Positions 1,011-27,860 of a stretch of DNA of 64,000 nucleotides are shown here, in pieces. The notes beneath the pieces are model-generated. The model saw only the letters and a program-made list of their open reading frames with translations. It was not told the origin of the DNA and searched no databases. Position numbers and translations under genes: made by a program. Where the stretch lies: contig CAJAQL010000016.1 in NCBI GenBank assembly GCA_903944135.1, positions 1,903 to 65,902 on the forward strand. The letters run 5' to 3'. Position 1 is the stretch's first letter. The number at the start of each line of letters is the position of its first letter. This DNA is from an uncultured Parcubacteria group bacterium (lineage in GTDB: Bacteria > Patescibacteriota > Minisyncoccia > UBA6257 > 2-01-FULL-56-20).

Positions 1011-1493
1011 TCACAAAGAGAAAATCTCTTGATTCTCCAGCGCCTTCAACCCGATCTCGAATATCTCTTTCATATGGGGGATATCACGGAGCACGCGGCG
1101 AGCATCTTGCTCTTCAAGCCAGATCGCACCCCTGATCTCATCCGGCGGCAATATAAGCGGCACCCTTCCTTTCATATGGACAAGGAATGGATAGATTATG
1201 GTATTTTTTTGATACCGTTCCGATTTTGGATTGCGGTACAGATCTTCATATTCCTTTTCCCAATCAATACGGCTCATCAGATAATCCTTCGGCGCCAACC
1301 CGAGCTCCTCGCACAGCTCCCGCTCAAGCGCGCCTTCAAGATCTTTATCTTCTAAATCCTTGCATCCGCCGGGAATCGTAAAACCTCCTCCGCATTCCTG
1401 CGTGATCAAAAACAATCTTTTATCTCCCTCTTTTCTCCAAACAACAGCCCTGACATTCTTCATTTTACCGTCCGAAAGATCAAGATTGGCCAT
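1011..1493 (-). CDS. NUDIX hydrolase
   Basis: A Nudix box GGCKDLEDKDLEGALERELCEELGL (GX5EX7REUXEEXGU pattern) in a 160-aa ORF. Confidence 0.8.
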   Translation of the reverse strand: MANLDLSDGKMKNVRAVVWRKEGDKRLFLITQECGGGFTIPGGCKDLEDKDLEGALERELCEELGLAPKDYLMSRIDWEKEYEDLYRNPKSERYQKNTIIYPFLVHMKGRVPLILPPDEIRGAIWLEEQDARRVLRDIPHMKEIFEIGLKALENQEIFSL

Positions 1494-4444: not shown

Positions 4445-4947
4445 GGTTTTTTCGCTTGCCCGCCATCAGGCGGCGTCTGTTGTTCGATTTTCTTTTTGGT
4501 ATTATGCCCTTCAGGATCCTCCATTTCGCGATAGATCGTCCCCAGAACTCCGTTCACGAACCGCGACGTGTTCGGCCCGCCATAATTTTTAGCCAGCTCT
4601 ATCGCCTCATTGATCGCAACGCGCGGCGGCACTTCATTATGGTCCGCAAACAGAAGTTCATACAGGCCGATACGCAGGATATTGCGGTCCATGACCGCGA
4701 TCTTATCAACCGGCCAGTCGGGGGCCGCCTTCGTGAGGATTTCGTCGATCTCCGTAAGATGTTCGATGACTCCCTTTAAAATGCGCCACGCAAAATCCGG
4801 TTCATCGATGCCCGGCGCAAATTCTTCAAGATTCCGTTCGAGAATGGCGGTGACGTCTTTCTCTTGCTTATAAAAATCCCACTCGTAGAGTGTCTGCAGA
4901 ATAACGGTCCTTATAAGATGCCTTGTTGCCATGATTGAAAAGAACAA
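4441..4947 (-). CDS. nusB: Transcription antitermination factor NusB
   Basis: NusB-like all-helical sequence ([17 protein letters not shown]...[16 protein letters not shown]), 168 aa. Confidence 0.8.
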
Positions 4948-5299: not shown

Positions 5300-7230
<1,931 letters not shown>

Positions 7231-7789: not shown

Positions 7790-8707
7790 TCACCTCTTGA
7801 ACTGATCATAGATATTGAGCACCGCCTTGATAGCGTCGCCGGCAGAAATATTATTCTGTTTATAGAGAACGTCGCTTACGTCGCCGGCTGCCCAGATGCC
7901 CGGGCACGACGTCGCCTGCGTCTTTGCATCAACCTTCACGGCACCATACGCGTCACGATCCACAAGATCCTTCACGAAATCGGAATTCGGCAAAAGTCCG
8001 ATCTCCACAAAAACACCATCGAGCGGGAGTTCTTTTATCTCGCCGCTTTTGACGTTCTGGTACGTTATCCCGGTTACGAGATCCTTTCCTTCCACCCCCT
8101 GCACAACCGCATTCCAAACGATCTCAACTTTGGGTTCGTTCTTTATCTTTTCCTGCGTTATCGGGTCGCCTTTCAATATCTCCGAACGGATCATGAGGTA
8201 TATTTTCGAGGCATACGGCAAAAGATCGATCACGGACTCAAGTGCGGAATTGCCGCCGCCTACGACCGCGACCGTCTTTTCTCCGAAAAGCGGCGCATCA
8301 CAGATCGAACAATACACCACGCCCTTGCCTTCAAATGCCGCCTCGCCCGGAACGCCGAGCTTTTTGCGACTGCTCCCGGAAACAAGAAGGATATATTTGG
8401 TCTCATAGGTTTTGGCGTTCTTTGTGGCAAGCGAAAATGAACCGTCCTCTTTTTTTTGCACGGCCATAACCCTATCGTCGTCCACGATCTCAATTCCTTT
8501 CTGTGCACGGAGATGACCTTCAAGATTTTTCGCGAGATCAAAACCGGAAATTGACGGCGTACCGATCCAATTCTGGATCTCGGCCGAAACCACCGACTGG
8601 CCGCCAAGGCCATCAGTAATTAAAAGCGTGCTCATCTTTTTGCGCGCAGCGTAAATGCCGGCCGCAATACCGGCAGGACCTCCTCCAATGATGATCAGAT
8701 CGTACAT
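7790..8707 (-). CDS. trxB: Thioredoxin-disulfide reductase
   Basis: FAD motif DLIIIGGGPAG, NADPH motif VAVVGGGNSA and a redox-active CSICDA (CxxC) motif. 305 aa. Confidence 0.9.
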   Translation of the reverse strand: MYDLIIIGGGPAGIAAGIYAARKKMSTLLITDGLGGQSVVSAEIQNWIGTPSISGFDLAKNLEGHLRAQKGIEIVDDDRVMAVQKKEDGSFSLATKNAKTYETKYILLVSGSSRKKLGVPGEAAFEGKGVVYCSICDAPLFGEKTVAVVGGGNSALESVIDLLPYASKIYLMIRSEILKGDPITQEKIKNEPKVEIVWNAVVQGVEGKDLVTGITYQNVKSGEIKELPLDGVFVEIGLLPNSDFVKDLVDRDAYGAVKVDAKTQATSCPGIWAAGDVSDVLYKQNNISAGDAIKAVLNIYDQFKR

Positions 8708-8722
8708 AGCTCTATAATGATA

Positions 8723-9295
8723 TCACGAAGTTGCCGCAATGCTTTCATTTTCTTTCGTCGGCGCCAGTTGCAAGGCGGTTCTCACGTCACGAAACAGCCA
8801 ATGGATGAACCATCCTGAAATAACGCCTATCAGAGCGCCAATAACGATATCGAGCGGCCAATGTACGCCGACATAGATCCGCGCGACACCCATGATGGCC
8901 GAGAGCGCAAAATACCATATCCCCCATTTTCGATTTGCGTACCAAACCGCAAGTGAGAGCGCAAAAAACCAAGTCATATGCCCCGATGGGAACGAGGGGC
9001 CGCTCTCGCCGATCAGCGGGGAAAAACCAAGCAAGACGAACGGGCGCGCCACCTTATAGAAAAATCTGATACCTTCCGTAAGAATGCCCCGAGAGAGAAT
9101 CACAGCGAGCGTTCCTTCCGCAAAAAGATAGAACCTTCGCCGTGCGCCCGACTCGCGGAACACCAAGACAAGAAACCCGATGACCAGAAGATAGGGCAGG
9201 TATTCCGCAAAAAAAATACCGAGAACATCAGTGAAAACCGAATGTCCGCTCAGATTATGGATGACATTGAAAAGAGAAAGATTCCAAAAAGGCAT
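8723..9295 (-). CDS. PAP2-family membrane phosphatase (undecaprenyl-diphosphatase/PgpB-like)
   Basis: PAP2 motifs SFPSGHMT and RIYVGVHWPLD in a polytopic 190-aa protein. Confidence 0.75.
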   Translation of the reverse strand: MPFWNLSLFNVIHNLSGHSVFTDVLGIFFAEYLPYLLVIGFLVLVFRESGARRRFYLFAEGTLAVILSRGILTEGIRFFYKVARPFVLLGFSPLIGESGPSFPSGHMTWFFALSLAVWYANRKWGIWYFALSAIMGVARIYVGVHWPLDIVIGALIGVISGWFIHWLFRDVRTALQLAPTKENESIAATS

Positions 9296-9358
9296 GAAAA
9301 GATTAAAGCACGGAATACCGGAAAATAAAAGATGAAGCAGGCCTGAATATGGAGGCGA

Positions 9359-10297
9359 TCATACAGATGCCGCCACCGCCTCCATTGCTTCTGTCGGCCC
9401 CTTCATGCGCGCAAGCACCGGCCCAAGCTTCTGTACGAAGTATTGGGCAACGCCGTACAACGCGTCAAGATCAACTTTTTTACTGACCGTTTTGTTGTCA
9501 TAGATGAAAAGATCATTGTTCACGATCTCGAGGCTTAATCCTCTGCATTTCTCCTCAAGCTCCGCCATGATATCGGGCGTGAATATCTCGAGCGCCTCGA
9601 CCTCGTATCCCTTTTTAATGCTCAAAGAAAAATATTTATTGAAATCCCCTTCAAGCTTGACGTGCTCAGAAAGCTGACCGAAAAGCTCGCCGCTAAAAAA
9701 AGATTCTTTCTTCTCCAGCAGGAGATCCGGCATGTCGACATCGAATTCCAGGCGAAACACCGTGTATGGATGCACTTGCCGCTGCTTCCCCTCGCCGGTC
9801 ACATATGAATAGAGGAAAAGCGAGATGGGACATCCGAAATATTCCCCGCTTACCGTATCGCGGACCGAGTGATCATGCCCTAAACGAAAAAGCGCACCAT
9901 CAAGCCCCACGGAGCTACCGGCGGGCGAGAAAATATAACCGTTCGCTTCAGCGAACTGACGCATGAATTCATCCTGAATACGCTGGCGCACAACCCCATA
10001 GGCGACGGCAAGCAACACCAAAGGAACCATGACAAGGATCGCGTCCGCACTATTATCGTTCCCTGCACTATTTAAAATGAAAACCGTAATGGCGCCGACC
10101 TCGAAGAGGACGATCACCGCGAGGCAAATGACGATCCTCCATAGATGCGCGCGGAGATACGTCACCATGCTCTGATCGACGCTCTGGATCTGTTCCTGAA
10201 CCGGCGCTGACACATCCGGCACGGCAACGGCAACATCCGATCCTTGCTCTGGGTCGTTATGAACCTCCACAACCTGATCCTCCATTGGCTCGTCCAT
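9359..10297 (-). CDS. Hypothetical membrane-anchored protein with an acidic N-terminus, one TM and a soluble domain
   Basis: The ORF-track entry 9359..10573 reads through the tRNA-Lys region. The plausible start is ATG at 10297 (MDEPMEDQ...); 10336 is an alternative. A TM helix (IVICLAVIVLF) is followed by a conserved-looking soluble domain. Confidence 0.5.
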   Translation of the reverse strand: MDEPMEDQVVEVHNDPEQGSDVAVAVPDVSAPVQEQIQSVDQSMVTYLRAHLWRIVICLAVIVLFEVGAITVFILNSAGNDNSADAILVMVPLVLLAVAYGVVRQRIQDEFMRQFAEANGYIFSPAGSSVGLDGALFRLGHDHSVRDTVSGEYFGCPISLFLYSYVTGEGKQRQVHPYTVFRLEFDVDMPDLLLEKKESFFSGELFGQLSEHVKLEGDFNKYFSLSIKKGYEVEALEIFTPDIMAELEEKCRGLSLEIVNNDLFIYDNKTVSKKVDLDALYGVAQYFVQKLGPVLARMKGPTEAMEAVAASV

Positions 10298-10406
10298 ATG
10301 ATGATTTTTAAGATCCGCGAATATCGTCTGGCCCATCGGCAGCGAGGCAGCAATAAAAATGAATTTGCCTTGAGTGACGGGCTGGCAGTGAATCGAAAAT
10401 ATAAAG

Positions 10407-10430
10407 ACGATGCCCCTTTTCGGGCATCGT
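10407..10430 (-). terminator. Hairpin plus U-rich tract downstream of the tRNA cluster, on the minus strand
   Basis: ACGATGCCC-GAAAAG-GGGCATCGT followed on the minus strand by CTTTATATTTTC. Confidence 0.45.
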
Positions 10431-10512
10431 GCCCCCACCAGGATTTGAATCCTCGTCTTCACGAGGACAGGCTCGCGGAACCGTCTCCTTACCATCGGGA
10501 GTGAGGCGAAAA
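10429..10512 (-). pseudogene. tRNA-like fragment or degenerate tRNA. It carries a 21 bp copy of the tRNA-Lys T-arm/acceptor 3' end (10429..10449) and does not fold into a cloverleaf
   Basis: The minus strand ...CCTCGTGAAGACGAGGATTCAAATCCTGGTGGGGGCAC shares TTCAAATCCTGGTGGGGGCAC exactly with tRNA-Lys. The upstream part forms hairpins (CTCC-CGATGGTAA-GGAG; CCTCGT-GAAG-ACGAGG). No acceptor 5' strand was found. Confidence 0.35.
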
Positions 10513-10542
10513 TAAAAATATGATTAGCAGTTGCGGACAGAG

Positions 10543-10615
10543 TGCCCCCACCAGGATTTGAACCTGGGACCATCTCCTTAAAAGGGAGCTGCTCTACCAG
10601 ACTGAGCTATAGGGG
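10543..10615 (-). tRNA. tRNA-Lys (anticodon TTT), no encoded CCA
   Basis: Minus-strand cloverleaf: acceptor GCCCCTA/TGGGGGC (one G-U pair), D-arm GCTC-AGTCTGGTA-GAGC, anticodon loop CTTTTAA, T-arm CCAGG-TTCAAAT-CCTGG, discriminator A. Confidence 0.85.
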
Positions 10616-10684
10616 CACTCTGTCCGCAACTAACTTCATTTAATCATATTTTTATTTTCGACGAACGATCCGATGGGCAAAATT

Positions 10685-10723
10685 ATTATTTTGCAAAAGG
10701 GAGCTGCTCTACCAGACTGAGCT
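10685..10723 (-). repeat. 39 bp direct copy of the tRNA-Lys 5' half (nt 1-36 plus 3 nt of flank). It stops exactly after the anticodon
   Basis: Identical to 10580..10618. Downstream of CTCCCTTTT the copy diverges into a GCAAAAT-AATAA-TTTTGC hairpin. Confidence 0.5.
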
Positions 10724-10838
10724 ATAGGGGCACGACGCCAACAAAGAATCGTCTTTATATTTTCAATGAACTGTCCACCGTAGCGCGAGCGACGGCGGGA
10801 GCTATATTGGGGCAAAATTCACTTATCAACAACCTCCG

Positions 10839-10912
10839 CGCGGTCGGCCGGAATCGAACCGGTAACCCCCGCCGTGACAGGGCGGTGCTCTAACCAATTG
10901 AGCTACGACCGC
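10839..10912 (-). tRNA. tRNA-Asp (anticodon GTC), no encoded CCA
   Basis: Acceptor GCGGTCG/CGACCGC, anticodon arm CCGCC-CTGTCAC-GGCGG, T-arm CCGGTTCGATTCCGG, discriminator G. Confidence 0.85.
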
Positions 10913-10995
10913 AAGATGCTTATCAGAAAAAGATTACTCGATATTGCGATATTTTTCAATATGAGATCCCTCAATATCGGAGCTGAACTCCGACG

Positions 10996-13128
<2,133 letters not shown>

Positions 13129-27675: not shown

Positions 27676-27760
27676 AGACCCATCATAAAATGACGCTTTG
27701 CGAAGTCAAAATATCTTTAAGAATTTTTTAATGAAAAATTCTTCATTTGGTTCGCTCATC

Positions 27761-27793
27761 GAAAATATGAGGATTTAGAATCCTCATATTTTC
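27761..27793. promoter_or_regulatory. Perfect 15 bp inverted repeat (candidate operator) upstream of the coiled-coil gene
   Basis: GAAAATATGAGGATT-TAG-AATCCTCATATTTTC. No U-tract follows, so an operator is more likely than a terminator. A nearby second palindrome is GAATTTTTTAATGAAAAATTC. Confidence 0.4.
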
Positions 27794-27860
27794 TCCTCTC
27801 TGCCAAATGTAATGATTTTTTAATAACTGCCCGCGAACAGTTCGTCTCTCTTATTTTCTG

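Follow-up and report, generated by a model that had tools for sequence, protein, structure and literature searches.

How does a bacterial tRNA gene come to lie at the centre of a long palindrome, bracketed by pieces of itself? The question is raised by a locus in a 64,000-nucleotide (nt) stretch of contig CAJAQL010000016.1, from an uncultured Parcubacteria group bacterium (Patescibacteria, CPR); we call this whole stretch the window. There an intact tRNA-Lys(UUU) gene is enclosed by long inverted repeats and accompanied, on the same strand, by partial copies of its own 5′ and 3′ portions. The arrangement had been noticed in a preliminary inspection made without database searches (hereafter the sequence-only reading). 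From the follow-up analysis presented here we conclude that the locus is probably a stack of hairpin cassettes belonging to an apparently undescribed, recurrently inserting family met in many uncultured Patescibacteria, each cassette bringing in a replacement tRNA-Lys as cargo, and that the layers were built by successive insertions. We regard the anatomy and the insertion history described below as highly probable.

The tRNA-Lys(UUU) was called by both ARAGORN and Rfam at 10543-10616 and is the sole functional-looking copy at the locus; CCA is not encoded. As the sequence-only reading had proposed, it lies between long inverted-repeat arms, which consist of two perfect 20-nt blocks (10507-10526/10641-10660 and 10529-10548/10612-10631). 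Neither arm was found elsewhere in the 64 kb, where the chance expectation is 0 matches, and complementary flanks were found at none of the other six tRNA genes of the window. The inner repeat indeed prolongs the acceptor stem into a perfect helix, which we measured at about 22 uninterrupted base pairs (bp), the U at position -1 being paired with A73. The segment 10492-10694 can be described as a non-coding hairpin of about 200 nt that supplies the working tRNA, and we refer to it as the youngest cassette. The insert taken as 10491-10694 (204 nt) folds at -98.3 kcal/mol (z = -12.0) into a rod comprising a small hairpin (H1), a closing helix (P-x), an internal loop with two conserved boxes (L and R), an A/U-rich helix with a bulge (P-y) and a last helix (P-z) that leads into the acceptor stem and the cloverleaf (Table 1). 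Similarly, the complete nested block of 401 nt folds as a nested rod (-194 kcal/mol, z = -13.5).

The partial copies are the two exons of one older, dead tRNA-Lys gene that was split by the cassette. The exact 39-nt copy of the 5′ half exists, 10 bases away from where it had been placed (10695-10733, not 10685-10723); it matches 10580-10618 at 39/39 positions and is invariant in the sister species described below. The identity covers leader positions -2 and -1 plus nt 1-36 and stops after U36, and not after position 37 as had been stated. At 10429-10449, precisely as given, lies the 21-nt segment that repeats the T loop and acceptor 3′ end exactly, and in the fragment around it a tRNA was recognised neither by ARAGORN nor by Rfam at E<=1. 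This tRNA-like fragment can be identified as the 3′ half of a tRNA-Lys gene, because in two sister-species contigs (L084 and L087) the segment preceding the 3′ copy (UAAGGAGAUGGUCCCA / TAAGGAGATGGTCCCA) is exactly nt 36-51 of the tRNA. In the window a 27-nt hairpin-containing insertion (10450-10476) stands in place of the 5′ strand of the T stem, which is thereby destroyed. In addition, three related loci (L128, L138 and L102) hold the complete 3′ half (nt 36-73) of an interrupted gene where the window has the 3′ copy. The sequence-only reading was thus correct in stating that this is unlike a normal tRNA gene and that recombination at the tRNA is recorded here, but its "partial duplication" understates the case, since both exons of a cassette-split older gene are present.

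The same design is repeated further out. An outer inverted repeat, concentric with the inner one (10386-10411/10748-10773, 88% identical, and 10416-10435/10727-10746), brackets both half-copies, and the two downstream flanks are copies of each other to the extent of a direct repeat of 66 nt (77% identity). The sequence-only reading mentions neither of these repeats, nor the H1 hairpin next to the 5′ half, nor the third-layer remnants described below. The left arm at 10732-10769 shares 92% identity with its counterpart in the level-2 cassette of a related locus, L126. Beyond it, 10770-10813 is homologous to the level-3 copy of L126, GUCCCUAUAGCU[UCCGCCGUCGCU...GGCGGAC]CAGU, with which it has a D-loop hairpin in common, and on the other side 10333-10366 has the same CCGAUGG end as the youngest cassette and overlaps the annotated 5′ extension of the downstream open reading frame (ORF). 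We also observed one T-stem lesion (CC-AUGAGCC-UGUCCU...) at two depths: in the 3′ half of layer 2 in the window/L083 lineage, and in that of layer 3 in L083 and L126 (window 10477-10491; L083 about 4905-4935; L126, oriented, about 6395-6440).

Scanning metagenome contigs with nt 8-36 of the tRNA-Lys gave 46 loci, 44 of them non-redundant tRNA-Lys(UUU) loci. Fragments of tRNA-Lys lay on one or both sides of the intact gene in about 16 of these 44, and 27-28 were plain. The plain genes had ordinary promoters and no flank complementarity, with an acceptor extension of at most 1 bp as against 7-16 bp in the armed genes. The innermost copy was intact in 46/46 loci, and outer copies showed deletions and hairpin insertions in their loops. 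In all layers examined the junction follows ...CCCUUU (U35) and the 3′ exon begins with UAAGGAG (U36). Hence the break does lie at an intron-like position of the anticodon loop, as the sequence-only reading held, but at 35|36 by family comparison, with a one-T ambiguity, and not at the canonical 37/38; some cassettes start with an extra U, which accounts for the apparent 36/37 break in the window.

Two perfect outer-gene halves flank a 190-nt insert of like design in L128, and removal of the insert in silico at 35|36 restored an ARAGORN tRNA-Lys(UUU) in L128, L138 and L102 (layer 2). The outer halves of L116 did so only if a D-loop hairpin was removed too, and the outer gene of the window yielded no tRNA by ARAGORN after cassette removal. 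Nested copies may be different functional alleles, the halves of each allele matching each other: in L138 the outer copy has GCCCCGG/CCGGGGC and the T stem CUAGG, the inner one GCCCCCU/AGGGGGC, and the nested alleles of L102 are CCCCCGU, CCCCCCA and CCCGCCC. L102 and L126 contain at least four layers. Two loci, L126 and L100, show the LigA-tRNA-Asp-tRNA-Lys synteny of the window (LigA 79% identical in amino acids, aa), with stacks that differ, L100 having one cassette. In L126 the order of the window is reversed: the window's outer type (left arm ~92% identical) is enclosed by its inner type (86% identical over 102 nt), and a third type occupies the innermost place. Most simply, the lineages would have inherited an old stack in common and then acquired new insertions independently.

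More widely, dnaJ adjoins tRNA-Lys in 26 of the 46 loci, and downstream of it some lineages have a plain gene and others a nested one. Organisms with 74% identity in LigA DNA have cassette arms that are 83-92% identical, and boxes L/R and H1 are common to lineages whose DnaJ is only about 56-65% identical. Among 80 reference-genome LigA loci (L001-L080), LigA-tRNA-Asp was present in all and the downstream synteny was lost, tRNA-Lys and the flank sequences being absent at all 80. Similarly, three remote homologues (P0003, P0004 and P0010) of the protein encoded downstream lie in other contexts, with no tRNA-Lys.

Conservation of the fold was examined in an alignment of 11 cassettes (A2), with 37 cassette pairs scored and the tRNA excluded. 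RNAalifold on A2 gave the helices of the single-sequence fold. Standard pairing reached 93.6%, against 73% in column shuffles (0/500 attaining the observed value), and fell to 41-52% when the partner was slid by 1-3 columns. Compensatory changes were present in 27 of the 37 pairs, among them all 7 of P-x and 9 of the 13 in the helix equivalent to P-z across the family; P-y showed one compensatory A-U to G-C change in the sister-species contigs (L083-L090). Within the internal loop, a mini-helix G-Y (box L)/R-C (box R) is CG in 6 sequences, UA in 5 and broken in none. Of 17 layers examined, about 14 had a hairpin at the H1 position, and at least 9 different sequences form its stem. Judged from this alignment, the cassette fold is under selection. 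The sequence-only reading had envisaged its own refutation in a chance palindrome whose flanking complementarity is absent from homologous loci; this did not occur, because the complementarity is kept there, with compensatory changes, and a chance palindrome is not upheld.

Several long contigs carry the same LigA protein. The sister species (LigA 94% aa identity, DNA ~89% overall) is represented by 8 contigs from 8 metagenomes, L083-L090, and in 8/8 the 5′ half, hairpin, both arms, intact tRNA, broken 3′ part and outer arms are all present. Segments of 10386-10733 are about 97% identical between the species, compared with 72-83% at third codon positions and 78-80% in other spacers; the intact tRNA-Lys(UUU) is 100% identical and the H1/P-x/box L stretch after the 5′ half is identical at 33/33 positions. 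The cassette flanks are thus constrained in place even though the outer gene is long dead. Arm changes between window and sister include one full compensatory replacement (CGAAAAT/ATTTTCG to CGAGAAT/ATTCTCG) and several one-sided changes that leave G.U. Since the sister contigs keep the architecture, the constraint and the compensatory change, both an assembly artefact and a chance palindrome are excluded. A short-read de Bruijn artefact at a repeated tRNA could have been suspected, as the window contig comes from MEGAHIT (k141) and the same organism's other contigs break here, L082 ending inside tRNA-Asp and L091 starting 12 nt before the downstream gene. It is scarcely credible in view of eight independent Joint Genome Institute assemblies of the sister species, copies that are diverged and not identical, compensatory changes, repeats much shorter than k, and recurrence of the family in assemblies of many projects. 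The contig breaks can be explained by repeat-induced fragmentation, so that nested tRNA loci may be under-represented in short-read assemblies. A separate feature of the sister contigs concerns strains that are nearly identical elsewhere: at 4800-4840 of L084/L087, corresponding to window 10477-10506, 9 substitutions are clustered within 40 nt. They restore exact tRNA nt 36-51, weaken helix P-x and resemble a tract converted by another copy of tRNA-Lys origin.

In the scheme that we propose, each cassette (~140-205 nt, non-coding) would carry a complete tRNA-Lys(UUU) in its apical part and land between U35 and U36 of a resident tRNA-Lys(UUU). As a cassette re-creates its own target, insertion would be recursive and nested layers would build up. 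The split older gene of the window would itself have been the cargo of an older cassette (arms in Table 1), within a still older copy, and selection would have been retained on the innermost gene only. No sigma-70-like promoter was scored inside the block or between tRNA-Asp and tRNA-Lys, and the only terminator-like hairpin of the region (10407-10430) lies at the block end, in the right arm of the older cassette; transcription of the cargo thus probably begins with the tRNA-Asp unit and reads through. Box L was also considered as a -35 element and ruled out, with no consistent -10 downstream. The precursor would include a decoy copy of the cargo's own 5′ half. The P-z/P-y/P-x leader-trailer duplex would join the correct 5′ and 3′ ends of the cargo despite this decoy upstream and would offer an RNase III-type enzyme an entry before RNase P and 3′ trimming; the U-tract of the arm, a possible termination tract for the cargo tRNA, would help end transcription. 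The duplex, with maintained helices of 22 and 20 bp, has the length of about 20 bp or more expected of an RNase III stem, cleavage being only predicted. Such a processing stem, suggested already by the sequence-only reading, would be a reasonable role for the arms, and we rate its chance as even. Conservation of H1, P-x and box L in place argues for a host-level role.

Two ways of spreading may be envisaged. Break-initiated copying could use the tRNA halves as homology arms of ~36 nt, in a homing-like manner and possibly after DNA uptake, and recursion would then be automatic because the cargo restores the target. Alternatively, the cassettes might move by single-strand hairpin transposition or recombination recognising boxes L and R. 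No mobilising enzyme was identified for either option in the window or at 13 nested loci, and our confidence in any specific mobility mechanism is low.

The insertion site recalls an intron, and the cassette might represent a bacterial tRNA intron of a new type: the outer tRNA-Lys would be spliced and the embedded tRNA released too, both functional while young. Group I introns of Patescibacteria self-splice at 35/36 of tRNA-Asn and tRNA-Asp (Nakagawa et al. 2026, PMC13011429, where tRNA-Lys and nested tRNAs are not mentioned), and in all layers examined the insertion follows a U (U35), as expected of the U.G pair of a group I P1 helix. The closing helix P-x juxtaposes the exon ends, several outer copies are perfectly intact after removal of the insert in silico, and the flanks are constrained in place. 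However, searching the window region and 8 related loci against Rfam (cmscan, E<=1, permissive filters) returned only tRNAs and no group I intron, small ribozyme or other ribozyme family; the catalytic core (P3-P9) of Intron_gpI was not recognisable in these nine loci. (Weak Rfam matches to Plastid-ycf2, MIR9772 and mascRNA were below threshold and reflect resemblance to a tRNA or a hairpin.) The insert ends with A in 5 of the 11 cassettes, with G in 4 and with U in 2, so that a terminal G is not conserved. In the predicted, covariation-supported fold the anticodon stem, H1 and P-x meet in a three-way junction, and no bulge-helix-bulge was found, a motif in which a 4-bp helix separates two 3-nt bulges on opposite strands. 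Moreover, outer copies decay in most loci while the innermost stays intact in all, and the outer gene of the window is beyond rescue. We thus consider an intron unlikely. A new class of intervening sequence, whose embedded tRNA would be cut out by ordinary processing while the outer halves are trimmed and joined, giving two tRNAs per gene recursively, also seems improbable. Could the locus have formed with no mobile element, the fragments being inert scars of partial duplication on the spot and of template switching that the palindrome promotes at the self-complementary acceptor stem, an origin close to the partial duplication or recombination of the sequence-only reading? The tRNA-adjacent arms are perfect palindromes seeded by the acceptor stem, A.C exceptions are as common as G.U ones, as expected of decaying DNA palindromes, and the layers of one genome tend to belong to one cassette subfamily. 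Such an origin deserves little credence, since nested copies appear as distinct functional alleles with matching halves (L138, L102, L116), the layer order differs between syntenic relatives, the non-palindromic boxes L/R, with their covarying internal pair, and H1 are shared across the wide DnaJ divergence given above, and the supposed scars are far more conserved than neutral sites. Attachment (attL/attR-type) scars of deleted integrase islands or prophages at tRNA-Lys are very improbable and effectively refuted. The identity blocks have boundaries in the anticodon loop and the T loop, where crossovers within tRNA genes classically fall, and a 21-nt 3′-end repeat is present, which the sequence-only reading had likened to an attachment-site scar. 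That view fails, as no integrase was found, the 3′ copy is only ~90 nt from the gene and relatives hold the full 3′ half there. No tyrosine or serine recombinase lies beside the tRNA in the window, where the neighbours are LigA and a Pfam-less conserved hypothetical protein, and no recombinase cluster was seen near the 13 nested loci. There are no kilobases of island DNA between direct repeats; the halves bound just ~200 nt of structured non-coding DNA, and both the 5′ and 3′ halves of one gene are there, nested rather than tandem. Viral-contig scans gave nothing relevant: the tRNA core had no match and box L one chance match within a coding region. (Viral-contig matches to the 3′ 21-mer proved to be unrelated phage tRNA-Met genes and one unrelated fragment.)

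Recurrent insertion of cassettes with a replacement tRNA-Lys is the explanation that we retain as probable, and several points weigh against it. A linked transposase, integrase or nuclease gene was not found, ORF clustering over the 13 nested loci recovering dnaJ/LigA synteny only. Filled/empty polymorphism was not seen within any one species, so that mobility is deduced from between-lineage comparison only. The T-stem lesion present in two layers needs an extra gene-conversion step between layers, and the conserved internal-loop boxes L/R have no explained role. Helix exceptions in the curated helices are G.U (16) about as often as A.C (13); the corresponding mismatch strand asymmetry was 29 vs 13 in a crude arm alignment and 16 vs 13 in the curated helices. 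As G.U and A.C are about equally frequent, RNA-level selection is not demonstrated and a DNA-level hairpin fits equally well. Splicing of young, intact outer copies is a further possibility. No description of a nested tRNA-Lys arrangement was found in the literature, in a search confined to open-access text.

Comparison with known systems revealed partial likeness to each. Like tRNA-integrating islands and prophages, the cassettes target a tRNA loop, keep a functional tRNA and leave a partial tRNA repeat; unlike them, they measure ~200 nt, have no integrase, carry a whole tRNA, keep both old halves nested and share at most one base at the junction. With the 35/36 group I introns (PMC13011429) they share the phylum, the site after U35 and a size close to that of the smallest such introns, but they have no detectable core or conserved terminal G, they contain a tRNA, and the interrupted exons decay, indicating that the exons are not rescued. 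Archaeal disrupted tRNAs (with bulge-helix-bulge introns, split or permuted) likewise have halves joined by intervening helices and small hairpins in D, anticodon and T loops; here, in contrast, the host is bacterial, there is no bulge-helix-bulge, the tRNA is inside the intervening sequence and the outer copies apparently do not function. Free-standing GIY-YIG homing endonucleases such as SegB of phage T4 resemble our case in the tRNA target and in copying via flanking homology, and a GIY-YIG ORF exists at one related locus. In contrast with GIY-YIG homing, however, the cassettes are protein-less, no GIY-YIG gene occurs in the window, and what the cargo restores is a target that is uncut rather than immune. 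That ORF was found only at this single atypical locus, L136 (about 1075-1314, minus strand; 81 aa, Pfam E = 1.8e-13), immediately 5′ of a tRNA-Lys whose acceptor stem is extended by 15 bp; ORF and tRNA-Lys both sit inside another tRNA-Lys copy bearing a 30-nt double-hairpin insert in the anticodon loop.

Short palindromic elements, namely repetitive extragenic palindromic (REP) sequences and REPINs, palindrome-associated transposable elements (PATEs) of the IS200/IS605 type, miniature inverted-repeat transposable elements (MITEs) and integron attC sites, are also short and non-coding, with a conserved fold, variable sequence and boxes near the stem base; they too make no target-site duplication, and tRNA-less copies in intergenic DNA are another likeness. 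The cassettes differ in being very rare outside tRNA-Lys (2-3 copies/1.4 Mb), in holding a gene in the apical loop and in having no GTAG or R-box (GTTRRRY). No RAYT, TnpA or IntI partner was found for them. The terminal inverted repeats and the target-site duplication of at least 2 bp expected of a DDE-type insertion sequence or MITE are absent, the true ends being H1 on the left and the 3′ strand of P-x on the right and the junctions sharing 0-1 T. The outline is IS200/IS605-like, with insertion 3′ of CUUU and a left-end hairpin, but the H1 sequence is variable; no HUH (Y1) transposase was seen beside the 13 nested loci by ORF clustering. The GTT/AAC core of attC is absent, and P-x varies freely (CCAUCGG, CACGGG, GAUUGC and others). 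Lastly, rRNA-type processing stems share with the cassettes a long leader-trailer helix (22 + 20 bp) around a mature stable RNA, maintained by compensation; they differ in that here a single tRNA is enclosed, the helix is part of an inserted cassette, and cleavage is only predicted.

Dispersed cassettes were sought by a regular-expression survey, which gave 12 matches against 1 in the shuffle control. The tRNA-less hairpin copies comprise one in the window (27745-27808) and two within dead copies of L126; one of the latter, in a T loop, lies 5′ of UUU, unlike the insertions 3′ of CUUU. The window copy is intergenic (plus strand) and reads AUUUGG-UUCGCUCAU-[15-bp stem, 3-nt loop]-UCCUCUCUG-CCAAAU; whichever strand is folded, the energy is -26.8 kcal/mol (z = -6.9), and the element resembles a terminator acting in both directions.

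If the proposed history is true, a selfish element would, by supplying a replacement, settle at the most hazardous of sites, the anticodon of an essential tRNA gene that probably exists in one copy. Since the replacement regenerates the target, the genome would keep a layered fossil record of insertions. Even without splicing, a self-retargeting cassette that encodes no protein and, in disrupting an essential tRNA gene, leaves the host dependent on its cargo would be something new. It would bear on how tRNA genes become interrupted and split, on the 35/36 insertion hot-spot in Patescibacteria and on the tolerance or exploitation of such elements in reduced genomes. For annotation, half-copies are easily mistaken for pseudogenes, attachment scars or ORF extensions, and the downstream ORF is called at 378-404 aa in this way. 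A compact RNA/DNA fold directing insertion to one base would be of interest for genome engineering once the mechanism is understood.

Table 1. Features of the tRNA-Lys locus and its neighbours, in window coordinates
Feature	Position	Strand	Evidence or description
Intact tRNA-Lys(UUU), cargo of the youngest cassette	10543..10616	minus	ARAGORN; Rfam RF00005, 69.3 bits
P-z, 5′ strand (leader), AGUUGCGGACAGAGU	10617..10631	minus	Pairs with trailer 10529-10542 and A73; inverted repeat I3, 100%; minimum free energy fold
P-z, 3′ strand (trailer), CUCUGUCCGCAACU	10529..10542	minus	Immediately 3′ of the discriminator base
Bulge of 9 nt after the P-y 5′ strand	10632-10640	minus	
P-y, 5′ strand (A-rich arm), CGAAAAUAAAAAUAUGAUUA	10641..10660	minus	Inverted repeat I2, 100%; family covariation
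P-y, 3′ strand (U-rich arm), UAAUCAUAUUUUUAUUUUCG	10507..10526	minus	Inverted repeat, fold, family covariation
Box L, AUCGUUCGU	10661..10669	minus	Internal loop, conserved 5′ side; family consensus UUCGYUCAU; alignment A2
Box R, CCUCACUC	10499..10506	minus	Internal loop, conserved 3′ side; family consensus CUUCRCUG
P-x, 5′ strand, CCAUCGG	10670..10676	minus	Cassette closing helix; pairs with 10492-10498
P-x, 3′ strand, CCGAUGG	10492..10498	minus	Final bases of the cassette; abuts U36 of the old gene (10491)
H1 hairpin, GCAAAAU-AAUA-AUUUUGC (18 nt)	10677..10694	minus	Immediately after the 5′ junction; fold
Older tRNA-Lys, 5′ exon ("5′ half copy")	10695..10733	minus	nt 1-36 at 10695-10731, plus leader -1, -2
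Older tRNA-Lys, 3′ exon remnant	10430..10491	minus	U36-nt 50 (10477-10491), 27-nt insertion (10450-10476), T-loop to A73 (10430-10449)
Older (outer) cassette, left arm, 5′-truncated, UCAUUGAAAAUAUAAAGACGAUUCUUUGUUGGCGUCGU	10732..10769	minus	Inverted repeats I1, I5 with 10380-10429
Older cassette, right arm, AUUCACUGCCAGCC	10380..10429	minus	With box R/P-x remnant
Third-layer, still older tRNA-Lys 5′ end remnant, GCCCCAAUAUAGCU	10770..10813	minus	D-loop hairpin insert 10774-10799
Oldest cassette, right-end remnant	10333..10366	minus	Box R and P-x 3′ strand; direct repeat D3, 82% to 10492-10519
tRNA-Asp(GUC)	10839..10912	minus	ARAGORN, Rfam; upstream of tRNA-Lys, co-oriented
NAD-dependent DNA ligase (LigA)	10996-13098	minus	tRNA-Asp then tRNA-Lys(UUU) downstream, same strand
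Downstream ORF	9359-10573	minus	ORF list; this and the public gene call (378 aa) run across tRNA fragments

The downstream protein is probably 312 aa long, because its homologues P0001 and P0002 start at the ATG of 10297; it is a conserved hypothetical, membrane-like protein with no Pfam domain.

Short GC-rich hairpins (UCCGCCAGCUGGCGGA, CCUGCCUGCCGGCAGGCAGG, UCCGCCUCCGGCGGA) were observed in D, anticodon and T loops of dead tRNA-Lys copies, in the window at 10774-10799 and 10450-10476 and also in L112, L115, L116, L120, L133, L136, L137 and L138. They look like a second, small palindromic insertion family that favours loop positions. Upstream of the intact tRNA-Lys of L124 and L137 we observed two tandem copies of nt 1-24, each followed by the same unit of ~58 nt; this repeat is of a different tRNA-Lys-associated kind, broken after the D arm. 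Finally, four of the sister-species contigs (L083-L086, about 8050-10942) hold a diversity-generating retroelement (bAvd and reverse transcriptase) together with a 95-aa GIY-YIG gene, at a place where the window has GroES/GroEL.

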